Shown: positions 1 to 9,632, counted from the first letter of the stretch. The stretch: 64,000 nucleotides of DNA from an uncultured Bacilli bacterium (GCA_947626095.1 CANQQV010000006.1:21643-85642), one strand, 5' to 3'. Notes: generated by a model from the sequence alone, not told the origin. Program-made: numbers and translations.

Positions 1-500
1 TCAGATGATTTTAAATCGTTACCAATATGGCCATTAAATCTTAGGGTAGTAAAACGATCGTTATATGCCTCAGTAAAAAAAGGTAGTAAGTCTGAATCAA
101 AGTCTTGGTAAAATAATTGAGTTAGACTTAAAGCTTTATCATTAGTTAAATAGGAGCCGGTAATAGCAGATATATCGAATTCTTCACCAAAATAACTTTT
201 TAATAAGCTTTCAACTTCATCTATTTTATCTTCTAATGATTCTAAAGAAAAGTAAAAATCTTGAATTAGAGAATAATAGCGACCATATAAGATACGTTCA
301 CTATTGATGTTATATAATCTTTGTTTAAAACTTTCACTTGGTCTTTTGATTGAAGATAGATTTTCAAAGACAAGGTGTTCGGATGAATCTAGGACTTTTT
401 CTAGATATAATTTTCTTTGAGGGTTAGTTTCTTTTTCAATTATTTTGCGTAATAAATTGATTTGTTTTAAGAAGTCATCGGTCGTCCAATTATATCTCAT
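1..500 (-). CDS. Hypothetical protein, 3' end truncated by window edge (MRYNWTTDDFLKQINYLRKIIEKE...)
   Basis: ATG at 500-498 with a GGAGGGG SD upstream; frame stays open to the left edge. Not in the ORF track. Confidence 0.8.
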   Translation of the reverse strand, partial: MRYNWTTDDFLKQINLLRKIIEKETNPQRKLYLEKVLDSSEHLVFENLSSIKRPSESFKQRLYNINSERILYGRYYSLIQDFYFSLESLEDKIDEVESLLKSYFGEEFDISAITGSYLTNDKALSLTQLFYQDFDSDLLPFFTEAYNDRFTTLRFNGHIGNDLKSS

Positions 501-574
501 AAAATCCCCCTCCATTTAAGTTGCTATGATATCATAGGTCTTCTTAAATATCAATTATTAAGTGAAATTATTGG

Positions 575-603
575 TTGACTTAAGTATTAAAAAATACTAT
601 AAT
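575..603 (+). promoter_or_regulatory. Sigma-A type promoter
   Basis: TTGACT (575-580), 17-bp spacer, TATAAT (598-603). Confidence 0.8.
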
Positions 604-609
604 GATTAT

Positions 610-1537
610 AGTAAGGAGGTATATAGAAGATAACATTTCTAATATCTTAGTATATTTTAGGGCATAAGCTTGAAAAATAGCGAAAATATAAAGAAATTTA
701 TATTTCATTTTGTGAAAAAATATATTTTTTAACGATATTAAAGAATAGTCTTATGACTATTATGGTTCTTATGAACCCCTCAACTTTAACATGTGCGATT
801 AATGCATTTGTATATTAGTAATAGATTACTAAGCCAAGAAGTTGATTTTCCAGCATATTTATATATGACTGAAGAGAATAATTTATAATTATTCTATTAT
901 CTTCTATTAATCGTTAAATGGTAATTTTGTTCATCCCCATTTAATCATTATCTGAAAAGAGTACTGAATACCGTTATATTCTACTAATAGTTAGCATTTT
1001 CTATTTTTCCAATATGGATAGTAGTTATATAATGAAAATGATGAATAGCTTTCGTACTAGCTTAGGTTTTATTTTGATAATAAAATCGCAAGTATGTTAT
1101 GCATTTTGATTTTTGTTTAGTAATTAACAGTTATCTTATATGAATTTAGCTTTATCAAAAGTAAAGCTTTTGGGATTATAAGGTAATATGGAAATTATTT
1201 GAACATGATGAAAGCGTTTGAAAATGATGGATCTTAAACTTGTCTTGCAAGGGAATCAAGTAATCCAACCGTTGAGTATAGGTTGGGAGGGTAGCTCCCA
1301 AACAACTTATACAATATACTATATCGTGTGAGCTCATATAAATATAATTTAGCGATGAATTGGAGAATCCTTATACGAAAGTATAGTTTAAACGTGAATG
1401 TAAAATTTACTTGAAATATCTGAATAAAAACAGATATTTATGATACTATCAAAATAGAATGTTACATTACACTATACGGAGGTTCATTTAAAACGGACAA
1501 ATGCAAATGTAGGAACGATTAATGTTCCTATTTTTTT
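610..1537 (+). ncRNA. Candidate large, highly structured non-coding RNA (~930 nt), family unassigned
   Basis: No ORF of 60 aa or more on either strand; bounded by promoter and terminator; many local and long-range helices, including GCAA and GAAA tetraloop hairpins. Confidence 0.7.
1510..1537 (+). terminator. Intrinsic terminator
   Basis: TAGGAAC-gattaat-GTTCCTA followed by T7. Confidence 0.8.
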
Positions 1538-1639
1538 GTGATTAATTTTATAGTAGCTATTGAATTAATGACAAAAAAATTATAAAATTATAATGTATAA
1601 TAAGATATTCTTGAATAAAAGAATAAAGGGGATGTTAAT

Positions 1640-2797
1640 GTGAAAGCAGTTGTTGGTTCAACTATTCAATCTAGCAGTTATGATGCAGGAATAGAATTAG
1701 CTAAAAATGCAACTAAAGGACTTAGATTACCAAAGATAGGATTTTTATTTGGTTCAACTAAATATACCCAAGCTGAGTTACTTAGAGGGGTTAAATCTTT
1801 TAATCCTGATATAAAAGTTATTGGTTGTACTTCAAATGAAGCAATTATGACACCAGATGGAATTATTTGGAATGAAGATGGTTTTGCAGGAATGTTATCT
1901 TTAGAAGATAATGAACTTACTGTTGGGGTCGCTTTAACAGAACGTGGAACTGATGCAAGAGTAGCAGGTAGAAGAGTAGCGAAAGAAGCAATGGCAAATG
2001 CAGAGAAAAAATATCCACCTTTAGCATTTGCTTTATTTACAACACCTGGTAGTGAAGAAGAATATATTAAGGGTATTCAAGATGTATTAGGAGAAATACC
2101 AATGTTTGGTGGATCAGCTGCCGCTGAAAATAGTAGTCTTAATTGGAGTGTTATTTGTGAAAATAAGTCGACTAATGATGGATGTGCCATTGCTATTTTC
2201 TATACAACAAAAAAAGTTAAGAATGTCTTTGTAAATAATTATGAAAAAACAAAAAATATGGGTATTATTACTAAAATGGATGGACCAAGAAAAATTGTAG
2301 AAATAGATAATTCTTTAGCATTAAAGAAATATGCTGAATGGAATGATATCGAAGCTGAAGATATAATGGATGATAAGCTAGCTTATGCAGCTATTTCTGT
2401 ACCATTAGGAGTAAGTACAACAAAAGGTGAGACTGTATTAAGTCATCAATTACTTAAAGGTAATCATGATTATTCGTTAGAAATTGGTTCAAATGCTAGT
2501 GTTGATACAGCAGTCATGCAACTTAAGATAACTGAGGATGGAATGATTGAAGGACTTGTTAAAGGAATTAATCAACTTAAAAATGAATTTAAAGCAACAG
2601 CAATAGTTTTATTGCATAGTAGTGGTCGTAAAAAATATTTAGATGAAAGAATAGATGAAGATTTTGTAGCATTGAAAAATGCGATTGGGGATATTCCTTT
2701 TATTGTTACATTTACTAATAGTGAGTTTGGAACGGTAGATCATTCTGGAGCTTTGGTAGCTAATTTATCATTATCTATTACTGGGTTCTCTGAATAG
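1640..2797 (+). CDS. FIST domain (FIST-N/FIST-C) sensory protein
   Basis: VIGCTS, PMFGGSAA, SxxRK and FxTxSEFG motifs typical of FIST proteins. Confidence 0.8.
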   Translation: MKAVVGSTIQSSSYDAGIELAKNATKGLRLPKIGFLFGSTKYTQAELLRGVKSFNPDIKVIGCTSNEAIMTPDGIIWNEDGFAGMLSLEDNELTVGVALTERGTDARVAGRRVAKEAMANAEKKYPPLAFALFTTPGSEEEYIKGIQDVLGEIPMFGGSAAAENSSLNWSVICENKSTNDGCAIAIFYTTKKVKNVFVNNYEKTKNMGIITKMDGPRKIVEIDNSLALKKYAEWNDIEAEDIMDDKLAYAAISVPLGVSTTKGETVLSHQLLKGNHDYSLEIGSNASVDTAVMQLKITEDGMIEGLVKGINQLKNEFKATAIVLLHSSGRKKYLDERIDEDFVALKNAIGDIPFIVTFTNSEFGTVDHSGALVANLSLSITGFSE

Positions 2798-2880
2798 TTA
2801 TAAAAGAATATATTTTCTATAATTATATTATATATTAATGGTCATAAAAAAAGCTTGACTATTGAGCTTTTTTTAGTTGG

Positions 2881-3150
2881 AAAAAATTTTAAAAAAACGC
2901 AAAAATTAAAAAATGTAAATTTTATGAAAATCGATTTTTTGAAAAAAAAGTAAAATATTGTAAATCGAACACAAAAAAATCAAAAAATGCTTTGAAGTCC
3001 CTATTTTAGGGACTTTTTCTTATAACAATATTCTTGATAATATCAAAAATAAAAAAACAAAAATCCCTAAAAAACGGAAAAAATTAAAAAAATTAAAAAA
3101 TGCAAAAAGGCAATTTTTGAAATTTTTTGCAAAAATAAAACTTTTCTTTT
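2881..3150. other. Phased A-tract region with palindromes upstream of nrdD
   Basis: A/T tracts recurring about every 10 bp; AAGTCCCTA-ttt-TAGGGACTT at 2995-3015. Confidence 0.5.
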
Positions 3151-3205
3151 TTATATATGTTTTATATAATGAAATTAGGAAAAGGTAGAAGGAGAGTTTT
3201 TAAAT

Positions 3206-5521
3206 ATGGCAAAGAAAGAAGAAGATCTTTTTGCTACTCTACAAGTAGTAAAAAGAAATGGTAAAAAAGTAGAATTTAATCCAACAAAAATTGCTATAGC
3301 AATCAAAAAGGGTTTTGATGATGTAATCGAAAAATCAATTGATGAAACTGGAGTAGCAAAATACTCTGAAAAAGATATGCAAAAAGTATTTCATGATGTT
3401 TTAGATCGAATTGAAAAAGATTATGCTGATAAAGATAAAATTAAAATTGAAGAAATTCAAGATTTGATTGAATCATCATTAAAGAGTAAAAAATATACAG
3501 ATGTATATGAAAGCTTTTCTAGTTATAGAGAAAGAAGAGCACAATCAAGAGAAGCTTTTACAGAAGATAAAAGATCTCATAAATTTTTAAAAACGTTAGA
3601 AGGACTTGCTTTAAAGAGTGCTTCAGAAGATGATACAAAAAGAGAAAATGGTAATATTGATGGTAACTCAGCAATGGGTACAATGTTACAATTTGGTTCT
3701 AATGTATCTAAGGAATTTTCTAAAACATATTTAATGAAGAAAAAATTTGCTGATGCTCATGATGAAGGTGATATCCATATTCATGATATGGATTTTGAAG
3801 CAATGGGTACAACAACTTGTTTACAAATAGATTTAGATAAACTATTTAAAGGTGGTTTCTCAACTGGTCATGGTTATTTAAGAGAACCAAATGATATTAT
3901 GAGTTATTCAGCATTAGCTGCTATAGCTATTCAATCTAATCAAAATGATCAACATGGTGGTCAAAGTATTCCATTATTTGATTATTATTTAGCACCAGGT
4001 GTTGTTAAAACATTTAGAAAACAACTTAAAATGACAATTCAAGATTTCTTAGATTATTCAGATTTTGCTAGTTTTGTTAATATGAAAACAGTTGAAGATG
4101 TTATTAATAAATTAACAACTATTGAAACACCTGTTGAAACTTTTGAAAAATTTTATAAAGAAAATGAGTCATTGAAAAGATTATTTACAATGGCATTAGA
4201 TAAAGCAGTTAAAAAGACTGATCGTATAACATACCAAGCAATGGAAGCATTTATTCATAACTTAAATACAATGCATTCAAGAGCTGGAGCACAAGTTCCA
4301 TTTAGTTCAGTTAACTTTGGTACTGATACTTCACCAGAAGGTCGTATGGTAATGAAAAATTACTTAATGGCTGTTGATGCTGGTTTAGGACATAGTGAAA
4401 CACCAATATTCCCTATATCAATATTTAAAGTTAAAGATGGAATAAATTATAATCCTGGTGAACCAAACTATGATTTATTTAAATTATCTTGTAAGGTATC
4501 TGCTAAAAGATTATTCCCTAACTTTGAATTTATAGATGCACCATATAATTTACAATATTATGTTCCAGGTAGACCTGAAACAGAAGTTGCAACAATGGGT
4601 TGTCGTACAAGAGTTATGGGTAATGTTGTTGATCCTGATAAACAAATTACACCAGGTCGTGGAAACTTATCTTTTACAACAATTAACTTAGTTAGATTAG
4701 GTATTAAACATGGTATTGTTGGTCCTAATGCTAAAGATAAAGCTGATATGAAAGGTTTCTATGAAGAGTTAGATGAAAAGATTGAATTATGTAAAGACCA
4801 ATTACTTGAAAGATTTGAAATTCAATGTAATAAGAGAGTATATAATTTCCCATTCTTAATGGGTCAAGGCAACTGGATGGATTCAGAAAAACTTAAACCT
4901 AATGATAAGTTAAAGAAAGTATTAAAACATGGTACTTTATCAGTTGGATTTATCGGTTTAGCTGAATGCTTAGTAGCTTTAATAGGAGAACATCATGGTG
5001 AATCAGAAAAAGCCCAAAAGTTAGGTCTTGAAATTATTGGCCATATGAGAAAGAAACTTGATGAATATAGTCAACAATATAAACTTAACTTTACTTGTTT
5101 AGCTACGCCTGCTGAAGGATTAAGTGGAAGATTTACTAAAATAGATAGAGCAATATATGGAAAGATTAAAGGTGTAACTGATCGTGAGTATTATACTAAT
5201 TCATTCCATGTACCAGTTTATTATAATATAACAATATCTAAAAAAATTAAAATTGAAGCTCCATATCATGCATTAACTAATGCTGGTCATATTAGTTATA
5301 TTGAGTTAGATGGAGATGTAACAGAGAATGTTGAAGCATTTGAATCTGTTATAAGAATGATGAAAGAAGCTGGAATGGGTTATGGAGCAATTAACCATCC
5401 AGTAGATAGAGATCCAGTTTGTGGATATGTTGGAGTTATTAAGGACGTATGTCCAGGTTGTGGACGTCGTGAGGGAGATCCAATTCCAGCAGAATTATTA
5501 AAGAATTTAAATAATAAATAA
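3206..5521 (+). CDS. nrdD: Anaerobic (class III) ribonucleoside-triphosphate reductase, large subunit lacking the glycyl-radical tail
   Basis: N-terminal ATP cone (VVKRNGKKVEFN), HIHD, QHGGQS, MGCRT finger loop, TPAEGLSGRF, YYTNSFH, C-terminal DPVC..CPGC; no RxxGY motif. Confidence 0.95.
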   Translation: MAKKEEDLFATLQVVKRNGKKVEFNPTKIAIAIKKGFDDVIEKSIDETGVAKYSEKDMQKVFHDVLDRIEKDYADKDKIKIEEIQDLIESSLKSKKYTDVYESFSSYRERRAQSREAFTEDKRSHKFLKTLEGLALKSASEDDTKRENGNIDGNSAMGTMLQFGSNVSKEFSKTYLMKKKFADAHDEGDIHIHDMDFEAMGTTTCLQIDLDKLFKGGFSTGHGYLREPNDIMSYSALAAIAIQSNQNDQHGGQSIPLFDYYLAPGVVKTFRKQLKMTIQDFLDYSDFASFVNMKTVEDVINKLTTIETPVETFEKFYKENESLKRLFTMALDKAVKKTDRITYQAMEAFIHNLNTMHSRAGAQVPFSSVNFGTDTSPEGRMVMKNYLMAVDAGLGHSETPIFPISIFKVKDGINYNPGEPNYDLFKLSCKVSAKRLFPNFEFIDAPYNLQYYVPGRPETEVATMGCRTRVMGNVVDPDKQITPGRGNLSFTTINLVRLGIKHGIVGPNAKDKADMKGFYEELDEKIELCKDQLLERFEIQCNKRVYNFPFLMGQGNWMDSEKLKPNDKLKKVLKHGTLSVGFIGLAECLVALIGEHHGESEKAQKLGLEIIGHMRKKLDEYSQQYKLNFTCLATPAEGLSGRFTKIDRAIYGKIKGVTDREYYTNSFHVPVYYNITISKKIKIEAPYHALTNAGHISYIELDGDVTENVEAFESVIRMMKEAGMGYGAINHPVDRDPVCGYVGVIKDVCPGCGRREGDPIPAELLKNLNNK

Positions 5522-5544
5522 ATAGAAGGAAAGAGGTAAAAGGT

Positions 5545-5730
5545 ATGAAAACAGAAAAAGTAGAAAAGGTTGCTGAAACTAAAGTTGAAAGCAAAAAAAT
5601 GGTAGGTGAAGGAGTAGGATTCGAAAGAATCAGAAGAATCACTGGCTATTTAGTAGGTACTGTTGAAAGATTCAACGATGGTAAAAGAGCCGAAGAACGC
5701 GATAGAGTAAAACACACATTTGATAAGTAA
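5545..5730 (+). CDS. Stand-alone NrdD glycyl-radical domain peptide
   Basis: RIRRITGYLVG...FNDGKRAEERDRVKH is the canonical NrdD C-terminus; has its own SD-like sequence (GAGGT) and ATG. Confidence 0.9.
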   Translation: MKTEKVEKVAETKVESKKMVGEGVGFERIRRITGYLVGTVERFNDGKRAEERDRVKHTFDK

Positions 5731-5734
5731 TAAG

Positions 5735-5759
5735 AGTGGACATTGTCCACTTTTATTTT
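5735..5759 (+). terminator. Intrinsic terminator after the nrdD pair
   Basis: AGTGGAC-att-GTCCACT plus T-rich tail. Confidence 0.7.
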
Positions 5760-5806
5760 GGAATAAAATAATCTTATGTTATAATGAGAACGATTGAAGG
5801 TGACTT

Positions 5807-6439
5807 ATGAAAAAGTTAGATATAATCTATGAAGATAAAGAATTATTAGTAGTTAATAAAGAAGCGCATAAATTAACAATTGCGACTGAAAAAAGAGAAA
5901 GTAATACATTATATAATGAAGCTAGTAGTTATGTTAAAAAGCAATATCCGAAAAATAAAATATTTATAGTACATAGATTAGATAAAGACACTTCAGGAAT
6001 AGTAATATTGGCTAAGAATCAAGATAAAAAGTTAGAATTACAAAATAATTGGGAGAAAGTAAAGAGAGAGTATATAGCAATAGTAGAGGGTAAATTAGAA
6101 AAGAAAAAAGATATTTTAAAAGATTATTTAGGCGAAGATAAAACGTTAAGAGTTTATATAACGAAAGATAAAAATAAAGGTAAATTAGCAATTACAGAGT
6201 ATGAAGTAATAAAAGAGAATAGTAAATATTCTTTACTTAAAATAAAGATAAGAACAGGAAGACGTAATCAAATAAGAGTACAACTTGCTAATATAGGACA
6301 TCCAATTGTAGGGGATAAGAAGTATGGTAGTAAAGATAATATATTAGGAAGATTAGCATTACATGCTAATTTAGTAGAATATAAAGATTATTGTTTTATG
6401 GCTAAGGATCCAAAAGAATTTAAAAAATTAATAGATTAA
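5807..6439 (+). CDS. RluA-family RNA pseudouridine synthase
   Basis: HRLDKDTSG catalytic motif, TGRRNQIRVQL, HPIVGDKKYG, LALHA. Confidence 0.92.
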   Translation: MKKLDIIYEDKELLVVNKEAHKLTIATEKRESNTLYNEASSYVKKQYPKNKIFIVHRLDKDTSGIVILAKNQDKKLELQNNWEKVKREYIAIVEGKLEKKKDILKDYLGEDKTLRVYITKDKNKGKLAITEYEVIKENSKYSLLKIKIRTGRRNQIRVQLANIGHPIVGDKKYGSKDNILGRLALHANLVEYKDYCFMAKDPKEFKKLID

Positions 6440-6482
6440 TATTATTTAATAGTTAGTTTATGATATAATTATCTAAGAATAG

Positions 6483-7370
6483 GTGATAAGAATGTCAGGA
6501 TTAGCTAATTTTTTATTTGGTAATATATTTCTTATAATATTAGTTGGAATTATTATTTATACTATTCGTCAATATAATGATTTGAAACAGAGAATGGCAA
6601 TTATTGATGATATTTTTAATAAGACTTTAGATGCTTATTTAAAGAAGAAAATAAATGAAGCTAAAGATGTGGCTGATAAGATAATGAAAGAGCATGGAGA
6701 AGATGAAATAGTAGCAGCAGAGATTAATCGTTTGTTATATCAAATAGCAAATTTTGAAAAGGGAACAATAAATGATAAGGTAGCGACAAGTAATTCAATT
6801 AATAAGTTTAAGGTAAGTAAGAAAATAGATCGTGAAAAATACCCTTATTTAACGGTTTTAGATGATTTAGGTACATTTACTGAGGAAGATATGAATTCGC
6901 TTGAAAATGGGGTTGCAATTGCCCGAAAAGAGTATAATACACAAGCTTTTAGATATAATGAGAAAGCTCAAGAAGTACCTATTCAATATTTAACGAAATA
7001 TTTAAAGTTAGTTTCACAATATTTGATTTTTGATGCTCCAACTTATGAAAAATATGAAGATGATTATGAAGTATTTGAAGAGAAAGAACCAGAAATTCAT
7101 TCTTTATCTGTTTTAAATAGAAGTACAGAAGTAGAAGAGAAGGCGGAAGTACTTAAGTTAGCAGAGGATGAACAGAAGGGACCTGAAATAACGGTTATTG
7201 AACATAGTGATGTTATTTTGAAGCCAACGAGAAAGATTCATCAAGATATTTTAGCAACAGATGTAGTGGATGAAACGAAAAAAGATAAAGAAGAGAAAAG
7301 CGAAGATAAAGATAGTAAAGATAATAAAGATAATAAAGATAGTAAGAAAGATACAGAAAAAAAGAATTAG
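6483..7370 (+). CDS. LemA-like membrane-anchored protein with charged low-complexity tail
   Basis: N-terminal TM; LENGVAIARKEYN...YNEKAQEVP resembles the LemA core. Confidence 0.6.
   Translation: MIRMSGLANFLFGNIFLIILVGIIIYTIRQYNDLKQRMAIIDDIFNKTLDAYLKKKINEAKDVADKIMKEHGEDEIVAAEINRLLYQIANFEKGTINDKVATSNSINKFKVSKKIDREKYPYLTVLDDLGTFTEEDMNSLENGVAIARKEYNTQAFRYNEKAQEVPIQYLTKYLKLVSQYLIFDAPTYEKYEDDYEVFEEKEPEIHSLSVLNRSTEVEEKAEVLKLAEDEQKGPEITVIEHSDVILKPTRKIHQDILATDVVDETKKDKEEKSEDKDSKDNKDNKDSKKDTEKKN
7308..7343 (+). repeat. 4 x 9-bp coding tandem repeat AAAGATA(A/G)T (KDS/KDN)
   Basis: Read directly from the sequence. Confidence 0.8.
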
Positions 7371-7376
7371 ATATTA

Positions 7377-7706
7377 TTATTTATCTAATTCTTTTAATTT
7401 GTCATATTGTTTATATAAGTATTGAACGTGATTTTCAAGATAAAAATAGTGATAGATATATAAGACAAGGAAAACAGTTAAAATCATAGCTATAGGTAAG
7501 AAAATTAAACTAAGAGCCATCATTCCTAAGAATAATAAAGTAACTACAGCATAAAATAAAGTTACATATAAATGAATTTGTCTTTCGTGTTGGAAGAAAC
7601 CTATTTTAATTAAATGATTATCAATTACTTCTTTTAAATTATTATGCTTTTTTTCAGCTATATAGTTATCAATACTTAACATATATTCATGTATATATTC
7701 TCTCAT
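7377..7706 (-). CDS. Small two-TM membrane protein
   Basis: ORF with FFQHERQIHLYVT followed by two hydrophobic helices. Confidence 0.75.
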   Translation of the reverse strand: MREYIHEYMLSIDNYIAEKKHNNLKEVIDNHLIKIGFFQHERQIHLYVTLFYAVVTLLFLGMMALSLIFLPIAMILTVFLVLYIYHYFYLENHVQYLYKQYDKLKELDK

Positions 7707-7746
7707 AGATTATCACCAATTTAATTATATCATTTAGCCAGAAAAA

Positions 7747-7768
7747 AACAAACTCTTATGAGTTTGTT
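7747..7768 (-). terminator. Terminator downstream of tRNA-Asn
   Basis: AACAAACTC-ttat-GAGTTTGTT with a T run on the minus strand. Confidence 0.7.
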
Positions 7769-7778
7769 AATTTTAAAA

Positions 7779-7854
7779 TGGCGCCTGATGTAGGACTCGA
7801 ACCTACGACCTAACGGTTAACAGCCGTGCGCTCTACCGACTGAGCTAATCAGGC
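7779..7854 (-). tRNA. tRNA-Asn (GTT)
   Basis: GCCTGAT/ATCAGGC acceptor stem, CTGTTAA anticodon loop, GGTTCGAGTCC T-arm, encoded CCA. Confidence 0.97.
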
Positions 7855-7931
7855 ATTGCTCTTTAATTATAACATTCTTGAAAATAATGTCAATAAAAAA
7901 TTAAAGGTTTTTTAAAGAACATTTTTAATTT

Positions 7932-8468
7932 TTACGTTTGGATATCAATACTTTTAACTTTGTTCTCACCATTTTTAATAGAAATATTAGCAATTAAAGT
8001 TATAACTAGATATTCGTTAGTACTTAGTTTTTCATTTTTAGGAGTAGGTAGAGTAGCATTTAAATTATTTATTTTAAGATCAAAAGAATAAGAATAGTAA
8101 GTATCAGTTATTTTCTTTAAATAGTTAGTATTAATTATTTCGTAATTATTCCATGTTTTAATCATATCTTTAGATATTGTTTGGTCAGTAATTATTTCAT
8201 CATTAATAGAATATAAGTAGTTGTTAATAATTTCTTTTTCATTTAAATCATTTAAGATAGATGGCTTTTCAGCTACTAGTGCTGGTTGTTCTTCTTCGCC
8301 TTTTATTTCTTTAAAAGCATTTTTAATTTCTTTAGTAAGACCATTGTATTCACTTAATGAGGCACAATATGATTTGGCACCAAAAACAAGAATAGTTGAT
8401 GCTCCTAGAAGACAGCTATAAATAATTAGATCGAATTTTATATTTCTTCTTAATCTCATATTATTCAC
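7932..8468 (-). CDS. Hypothetical exported or membrane-anchored protein
   Basis: Basic N-terminus plus hydrophobic helix. Confidence 0.7.
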   Translation of the reverse strand: MNNMRLRRNIKFDLIIYSCLLGASTILVFGAKSYCASLSEYNGLTKEIKNAFKEIKGEEEQPALVAEKPSILNDLNEKEIINNYLYSINDEIITDQTISKDMIKTWNNYEIINTNYLKKITDTYYSYSFDLKINNLNATLPTPKNEKLSTNEYLVITLIANISIKNGENKVKSIDIQT

Positions 8469-8564
8469 CTTATATTATTATACTATAAAATATAATAATT
8501 TAAAATAAGGTCGTTTATTTACTAAGAATAGTTATTCATGGTATAATGGTAAAGGTGATTATAT

Positions 8565-9632
8565 ATGAACGAAAGTAATAATGGACGTGTTAGTTATCAA
8601 GTTGGGGGAAGAAAAAATACTGTAGAAGTTCCAACTAATAATCAACCTAGTATTAATGCAGTAATTAGTGATACTAAAGAGCCAGAAGTATTAGATGTTC
8701 CAGTTAATAATTTTGAAGTAAGTATTCTAGAACGCTATGGAAGAGATTTAACGGCGGTAGAGTATTTAACTGATCCTTCAATAGGAAGAGATAATGAAAT
8801 TAAACAAGTTATTATGACTTTGTTAACACCAGAAAAGAGTGCTTTATTAGTAGGTAAAGCTGGTGTAGGTAAAACATCTATTGTTGAAGGGGTAGCTTAT
8901 CGTATTCAAAAACATATGGTACCACAAGCATTAGAGGGGTATAAAATATATAAATTAAATGTAACTTCATTACTTGGTCAGACTGAATCTAATGGTCAAA
9001 TAGAAAATAGAGTTGATTTGTTAGTTAAAGAGTTAGCGAAGAAAAGTAAGACAATAGTATTTTTAGATGAAACCCATGTCTTAGTAAATAAAGATGGAGC
9101 AGAAAATGGTATCGATTTTGCGAATATGTTTAAAGCAGGATTAGACCGTGGGGAAATAAAAATGATTGGTGCAACAACTGATGAAGAATATGAACAATAT
9201 ATATTAAAAGATAGAGCGTTTTTAAGACGTTTTCAAAAGATAGATGTTGCTGAAGCTGATCAAGAAACAACAGTTAAGATATTAATGGGAACATATCCTA
9301 AAATAGAAGCTAAAACGGGAGTACATTTTGAATATACATCATTTGTTATTGAAAGAATAATGCGTTTTATTGTAGATATGACAGATGAATATAAAAGAAT
9401 ATATGAAATATCTAGTAGATATCCTGATATTTGTTTAACAATAGTTTCTAATGCTTTTACTTATGCTTTATTTGATAATGAGAATGTTTGTCGTATTAAA
9501 CATATTTATAAAGCAATATGTAATGCGAGAAATGTTTATGACGATGCAAAGAAGAAAGCAATTGAAAAGTTTAAAGTAGATTTTGCTGATTTAATTAGAG
9601 AAGAAAATGTTGATTTAACGGAAATAGGTTAG
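8565..9632 (+). CDS. ClpA/B/C-like AAA+ ATPase containing only NBD1
   Basis: [48 protein letters not shown]. Confidence 0.85.

Follow-up and report, generated by a model that had tools for sequence, protein, structure and literature searches.

Can a class III ribonucleotide reductase (RNR) work when the segment that bears its radical is encoded by a separate small gene? The question is raised by a 64,000-nucleotide (nt) stretch of DNA from an uncultured Bacilli bacterium (GCA_947626095.1 CANQQV010000006.1:21643-85642; the whole stretch is called the window below), in which the anaerobic reductase gene nrdD stops short of its glycyl-radical loop and is followed by an open reading frame (ORF) of 61 residues that carries this loop. 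An earlier reading of the DNA alone (the sequence-only reading) had proposed a two-chain RNR with a cheaply replaceable radical subunit. The analysis described here strongly supports the two-chain part of this proposal; replaceability stays a suggestion, as the genus holds no spare copy of the small gene. We consider it very probable that the two ORFs encode an obligate, working class III RNR of two chains, whose radical would be installed by the activase NrdG on Gly34 of the small chain.

The gene layout is as the sequence-only reading had described it. The large gene ends with a TAA codon (5519–5521) without encoding an RxxGY motif, on which the ORF reading and the profile matches agree. After 23 nt, a separate small ORF starts with its own Shine-Dalgarno (SD) site (aaagaggt, with the GAGG 8 nt 5' of the ATG at 5545), carries the RRITGY loop and the C-terminal tail, and closes with TAA TAA. 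The single terminator that had been assigned to both genes was also recovered: a hairpin at 5735–5751, followed by TTTATTTT, stands after the small ORF (the terminator scan lists this hairpin on the minus strand), and the same scan found no terminator-like site between nrdD and the small ORF. A promoter scan yielded 14 sites, against 19.8 expected from shuffles. There is indeed no nrdG within the window; the sole NrdG match of the genome sits on another contig (C11).

Matches to two protein families tile across both ORFs. The Pfam NRDD profile (PF13597) covers residues 147–756 of the large chain with its positions 1–531 of 562 (E 4.5e-184, 613.7 bits, cut-off 26.2), and residues 26–57 of the small chain with its positions 533–562 (32 bits, same cut-off). 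Similarly, NCBIfam NF005497 (746 positions; 1019 bits, cut-off 764) places its positions 3–711 on the large chain and 710–744 on the small chain. The two ORFs therefore make up one NrdD from which nothing is missing, and the split gene structure is confirmed. The large chain, which ends at NRDD position 531, has no RxxGY loop; the loop is present only in trans, on the 61-residue ORF. The cut lies about 8 residues 5' of the radical glycine, within the radical domain, and leaves the metal-binding half of the domain on the large chain. The barrel cysteine C205 and the MGCR finger loop are invariant in 45 split large chains; a finger-loop motif of this type, with a single Cys and a Met, is described in the available part of PMC9669993.

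The closest solved enzyme is NrdD of Prevotella copri, to which the large chain aligns at 8p23_A 8–708 (E 5.6e-178) and small-chain residues 26–58 at positions 707–739. According to the available text of PMC11226230, residues 676–739 of the P. copri protein form the glycyl-radical domain, in which a zinc site is followed by the buried Gly711 loop, a short helix (723–730) and a tail across the barrel; key contacts are made by Tyr712 and Arg719, and the construct has four additional N-terminal residues. With this 4-residue tag offset, Gly34, Tyr35 and Arg42 of the small chain align with Gly711, Tyr712 and Arg719, whose roles are those given in the same text. An AlphaFold2 model of the large chain alone had a mean predicted local distance difference test score (pLDDT) of 84.3 and a predicted template modelling score (pTM) of 0.79, and compared with the P. 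copri and phage T4 NrdD chains it gave template modelling (TM) scores to target of up to 0.92. We infer the docking of the small chain and the path of the radical from this homologous solved enzyme.

Conservation of the split in related genomes was a check proposed by the sequence-only reading. Among 25 genomes of the genus, including the source genome (G000), 22 had the two-hit split pattern; of the three exceptions, one had no match (G012), one had fragments only (G015) and one had only a one-piece type (G024). All 22 loci that were read directly are split, and this recurrence places the pattern far beyond chance. The details vary from locus to locus: the large gene stops at TAA in 15 and at TAG in 7, the gap measures 15–83 nt, and the frame of the small ORF relative to the large one is 0 in 6, +1 in 10 and +2 in 6. 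An aaagaggt-like SD site and an ATG are kept in all 22, and the small proteins are near-invariant from FERIRRITGYLVGT onward. The ratio of nonsynonymous to synonymous substitution rates (dN/dS; medians over 153 non-independent pairs from those 18 small ORFs, out of 22, that are 61 codons long) was 0.073 for the whole small ORF, 0.144 for leader codons 1–24 and 0.043 for the core, and 0.061 for the large gene (205 codons). No close relative in the genus proved to be fused, and G000 gave no other intact nrdD; either finding would have spoken for a single-chain enzyme or a decaying copy.

Apparent fusions in six genomes of the genus and in Succinivibrio dextrinosolvens (open frames of 842–865 residues) were rejected, since direct reading shows stops between the parts. 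A different, one-piece type of NrdD occurs in two genomes of the genus (G001:C3:21119-22933; G024:C46:6426-8216 and G024:C7:4454-6247), as a second copy or as contamination; one of the G024 copies has two in-frame TAG codons.

Profile searches of G000 (1.6 Mb, 34 contigs, 91% complete, 7.9% contamination) found no NRDD match outside the nrdD pair, no class I/II RNR large subunit (PF02867), and no protein of the Gly_radical or pyruvate formate-lyase (PFL)-like families. The split pair is the only RNR found in this genome at its 91% completeness. With no other RNR or glycyl-radical protein found there, the large chain is the one plausible partner of the small chain, and only one function is plausible for the pair. 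PF02867 is likewise missing from 25 of 27 genomes of the genus. The nrdG gene of G000 is intact, a 177-residue ORF with a visible CxxxCxxC motif (TIGR02491 157.1 bits, cut-off 126.1, at C11:4725-5165).

We propose the following mechanism. Both chains would be co-transcribed and translated separately from their own starts. The 771-residue chain would contribute the ATP-cone, the catalytic barrel with its finger-loop cysteine, and the metal-binding half of the radical domain, and the 61-residue chain the Gly34 radical loop together with the C-terminal tail, which in one-piece NrdD crosses the top of the barrel. NrdG, encoded at an unlinked site, would take a hydrogen from Gly34, and the armed loop, lodged in the barrel beside Cys466, would initiate the reduction of nucleotides, for which formate is the likely reductant. 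Glycyl-radical proteins are cleaved by oxygen at the glycine; damage would therefore be limited to the 61-residue chain, and a new copy of it could make the large chain active again.

The split layout extends far beyond the genus. When the small chain was searched against a library of 1.84 billion protein representatives, 2021 matches were obtained at E <= 0.001 and 571 at E <= 1e-10. The best 150 of the 2021 matches are all 54–196 residues long (145 at <=103), all start with M, and combine a variable leader, a conserved core and a variable tail. Of 8000 short candidates from a word-indexed search, 7982 scored as relatives; the source names of the short relatives are 'hypothetical protein' or 'anaerobic ribonucleoside-triphosphate reductase'. 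A genome pattern scan with one genome per species returned at least 600 stretches, the best 80 of which were classified: 69 are split (the large gene being intact in 62 and partial or fragmented in 7), 3 are fused, and at 8 the small gene stands alone. Among these best 80, nrdG is present at 58 of the 69 split loci, mostly in the order nrdD, small gene, nrdG. The family of the window genome contains four other genera with split genes, in this same order, and three with fused genes. Record titles of the loci name, among others, Bacilli metagenome-assembled genomes (MAGs), Oscillospiraceae, Lachnospiraceae, Succinivibrionaceae and Desulfovibrionaceae. The split was counted in 21 of 41 Succinivibrionaceae genomes and in 9 of 60 NrdD-bearing genomes of the Clostridia order around locus L095. 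In the cultured type strain S. dextrinosolvens DSM 3072, NrdD is encoded solely by the split pair, whose parts are separated by three in-frame stops; the strain carries one additional small gene and gave no PF02867 match. Mycoplasma-like genomes with frames of ~171 residues were rejected as candidates, being ordinary one-piece NrdD when read with TGA=W. The nrdD genes of five loci labelled Muribaculaceae or Rickettsiales (L077, L089, L096, L123, L138) nest among Bacilli MAGs on the tree described below, and are likely mislabelled bins or recent transfers.

How the split may have arisen can be read from the junction. At the junction, one-piece relatives have CGR-TEADGVKFERIRRITGY; where the large-chain tail stands, fused relatives have CGR-TEADGVKFERI. 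Across the 69 split loci, the large-chain tail after CxxCG[RK] keeps the positions of GEGV..E[KR][LI] (G in 61, E in 66, V/I in 65, E in 55, K/R in 48, L/I/V in 65), and the small-chain core opens with GEGV-like residues in 69 of 69. The tail in the window (REGDPIPAELLKNL) matches this consensus at 8 of 14 positions by our count. What the large-chain tail preserves is an eroded version of the first part of the radical segment, and this points to a duplication long ago. As the same stretch is kept on both chains, a simple stop mutation cannot be the source; most likely the 3' radical segment was duplicated in tandem and the first copy then decayed. The sequence-only reading had called the leader of the small chain non-homologous. 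This holds for about residues 1–19, which are lineage-specific; residues 20–25 (VGEGVG) are homologous to the linker of one-piece NrdD. A single origin of the split finds no support in a tree built by a quick method from 104 rows (76 split, 28 fused). The changes of state on this tree may reflect repeated splitting, re-fusion or transfer alike.

We asked what a separate radical chain might bring to the cell. One possible answer, which we put forward tentatively, is that the small chain is a consumable and exchangeable radical cartridge: NrdG would arm free small chains, and these would replace a resident chain cleaved by oxygen. With the same reserve, the cartridge reading would see the part multiplied as extra copies in some lineages, and, where it has acquired a new N-domain and stands beside superoxide reductase, it might perhaps serve as a true spare for a one-piece NrdD. 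The support for this idea is circumstantial and comes from other lineages only, in the form of extra copies and orphan proteins. Extra unlinked small-gene copies (1–3 per genome) are found in 15 of the 21 split Succinivibrionaceae genomes, one of them by a weak match, but in 0 of the 20 with one-piece NrdD, with the relatives in this comparison being non-independent (genomes G431-G473; example L157:3500-3679, minus strand). Eleven orphan proteins of 87–114 residues (L044, L057, L065-L073) join an N-domain of ~55 residues to an NrdD-type radical core. Their genomes also encode a one-piece NrdD in 10 of 11 cases, and the orphan gene is directly beside desulfoferrodoxin in 2 of 11 (L070:3781-4053, L073:4078-4350). 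We regard these proteins as candidate true spare parts for NrdD.

A neutral split offers another possible explanation, though we would stop short of expecting it. Here duplication and degeneration would have fixed two chains, with the small chain bound for good and no gain in oxygen repair. Recombination between the repeated GEGV..ER stretches would easily re-fuse the gene. The state changes at least six times on the quick tree, three of them forced by well-supported branches; split and fused forms are thus able to turn into one another, and selection may be indifferent to the split. The small gene is single in the window genus. Against neutrality stand the extra small genes of the split Succinivibrionaceae (including the one weak match, and with their non-independence) and their lack in the one-piece members, the orphan NrdD-type radical proteins adjoining desulfoferrodoxin at two loci, and the constraint on both the large-chain tail and the leader. 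Several points weigh against a working two-chain enzyme with an exchangeable radical chain. Besides the repeated changes of state, the window genus has neither extra small genes nor orphan-type proteins and keeps nrdG unlinked, and thus does not speak for exchange. The AlphaFold2 model of the large chain is poorly defined beyond residue 730 (pLDDT 33–59). The RNA evidence consists of one library contig, X18, which spans the junction (5398–5569) with no cover past 5660; it is too weak for a claim of expression and may be DNA carry-over or come from a relative.

The remaining explanations bear on the two-chain enzyme itself. The pair could be a decaying pseudogene, with deoxynucleotides supplied by another RNR or by salvage, and in a 1.6-Mb genome at 91% completeness another RNR could be unassembled; we consider this very improbable, because dN/dS is 0.06–0.07 on both genes, the catalytic residues are invariant, an intact nrdG is kept, and the class I/II large subunit is missing from nearly all genomes of the genus. 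There is also little chance that the small protein serves some other glycyl-radical enzyme, or that the large chain has a radical-free role. GrcA-type proteins do act in trans on PFL, according to the available text of PMC13450708, but no PFL-like or Gly_radical family protein was found in G000 by profile search, the core of the small chain is NrdD-type, and the large chain retains its MGCR cysteine and ATP-cone. Recoding, by stop read-through or a programmed frameshift, would yield one fused polypeptide, and six of the 22 genus loci have both ORFs in the same frame with one stop between. However, other frames are used at the other 16, the gaps vary and bring in more stops, such as TAA taa in L026, both a strong SD site and the ATG are conserved, and no known Rfam element lies in 1–9000 besides one tRNA, so that recoding is hardly credible. 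The junction is crossed by contigs from three DNA studies, gap-free in X1 (5404–5702) and X6 (5401–5603), and in X5 with a 1-nt deletion at 5516 that nevertheless leaves the large frame closed by a stop. An error of sequencing or assembly that shifts the frame of a one-piece nrdD, against which the sequence-only reading had already argued and in favour of which one could cite the 34 contigs and 7.9% contamination of the genome and the A-rich runs flanking the stop, is excluded for practical purposes by these agreeing contigs from three other studies, by purifying selection, by 22 species-level loci that differ in gap length, cover all three frame offsets and each have a stop, SD site and ATG, and by the three in-frame stops of S. 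dextrinosolvens.

The two-chain enzyme can be compared with known systems. It shares family and fold with the one-piece NrdD/NrdG enzymes (Prevotella copri 8P23; phage T4 1H78-1H7B; S. thermophilus 9D3X), as well as the ATP-cone, the MGCR finger loop, the metal site, the RxxGY loop and nrdG. In contrast to these, the polypeptide is cut inside the glycyl-radical domain, loop and tail form a 61-residue protein with its own leader, and the large chain has a conserved extra tail. Like GrcA/YfiD of E. coli and Y06I of phage T4, which are spare parts for PFL, the small chain is a small stand-alone protein with a C-terminal glycyl-radical loop and a variable, probably disordered N-terminus; activation in trans by the enzyme's own activase, as proposed here, and the idea of replacing an oxygen-cleaved part are also common to both. 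However, GrcA belongs to the PFL-type Gly_radical family, whereas the small chain matches only NRDD in Pfam (E <= 0.1), with no PF01228. Furthermore, GrcA rescues an enzyme that has its own loop, whereas G000 has neither a one-piece NrdD nor PFL. Since the large chain lacks a loop of its own, the small chain is obligatory and not a spare.

Division of an RNR into two genes has a precedent in class II: in Pseudomonas aeruginosa, the catalytic subunit is encoded by two adjacent genes, nrdJa and nrdJb. This class is B12-dependent and is split elsewhere than NrdD; to our knowledge, the NrdJa/NrdJb split separates no radical-bearing residue. Among multi-subunit glycyl-radical enzymes, benzylsuccinate synthase and 4-hydroxyphenylacetate decarboxylase consist of a large catalytic chain and one or more small chains, with the radical glycine on the large chain and the small chains accessory. 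As far as we know, glycyl-radical enzymes have been described with the radical on their own C-terminus, the only exception being GrcA/YfiD of PFL. In the available portions of two reviews (PMC13450708, PMC8683613), spare-part proteins are shown only for PFL, and what is available of the 2026 review (PMC13450708) treats their existence for other glycyl-radical enzymes as an open question. We found no description of a split NrdD in the literature, in a search that left subscription journals and supplements outside; the layout, conserved and widespread, is apparently undescribed.

A whole genus would depend for its essential anaerobic RNR on a radical held by a separate peptide of 50–80 residues, and the same would apply to many gut Clostridia, Succinivibrionaceae and others. 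The layout might let cells renew only the piece damaged by oxygen. If the cartridge reading is true, an oxygen hit would cost 61 residues rather than ~830, which would bear on how strict anaerobes survive oxygen pulses, and the orphan or cartridge spare part would be the first such system outside PFL. The spare-part question is made directly testable by the cultivable carrier S. dextrinosolvens DSM 3072, and the small chain would provide NrdG with a natural substrate of minimal size. Databases list truncated nrdD genes, like the small ORFs after them, as 'hypothetical' or as NrdD, which makes them easy to mistake for fragments.

Table 1. Features of the split nrdD locus, in positions of the window.
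Feature	Position	Strand	Description or basis
nrdD large chain	3206..5521	+	771 residues; ATP-cone, ten-stranded barrel and metal-binding half of the glycyl-radical domain
ATP-cone, large-chain residues 13-112	3242..3541	+	Pfam PF03477, E 4.7e-14
Finger-loop motif M464-G465-C466-R467	4595..4606	+	Predicted thiyl-radical cysteine; single-Cys type with Met; no variation among 45 aligned split large chains
C739, C749 and C752 of the C-terminal metal site (PVC ... CPGC)	5420..5461	+	Invariant alignment columns
Large-chain tail REGDPIPAELLKNLNNK	5468..5518	+	Member of the conserved split-NrdD tail family; position counts, 69 split loci
Intergenic gap, 23 nt, with Shine-Dalgarno site (GAGG 5533-5536)	5522..5544	+	Sequence reading
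Small chain ORF	5545..5730	+	61 residues; variable leader (1-19), conserved core VGEGVGFERIRRITGY to RVKH
GGC codon of Gly34, predicted radical glycine	5644..5646	+	Alignment to P. copri NrdD
Hairpin and T-run, 3' of both genes	5735..5759	+	Sequence reading and terminator scan

The neighbours of the pair are unrelated to RNR: a FIST-domain protein lies upstream (1640–2797) and an RluA-type pseudouridine synthase downstream (5807–6439), with a tRNA at 7782–7854 (minus strand). Elsewhere, a small gene without nrdD within 3.5 kb was seen at eight loci (L106, L120, L125, L132, L143, L144, L148, L151). By eye, L106 and L151 adjoin rubrerythrin-, rubredoxin- or cytochrome bd-like genes, and L120 and L148 adjoin integrase-like genes. 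Cysteine-rich ends (CC, CxC, CxxC) occur on many large- and small-chain tails, for example on the small chain of L030 and the large chains of L036-L039.

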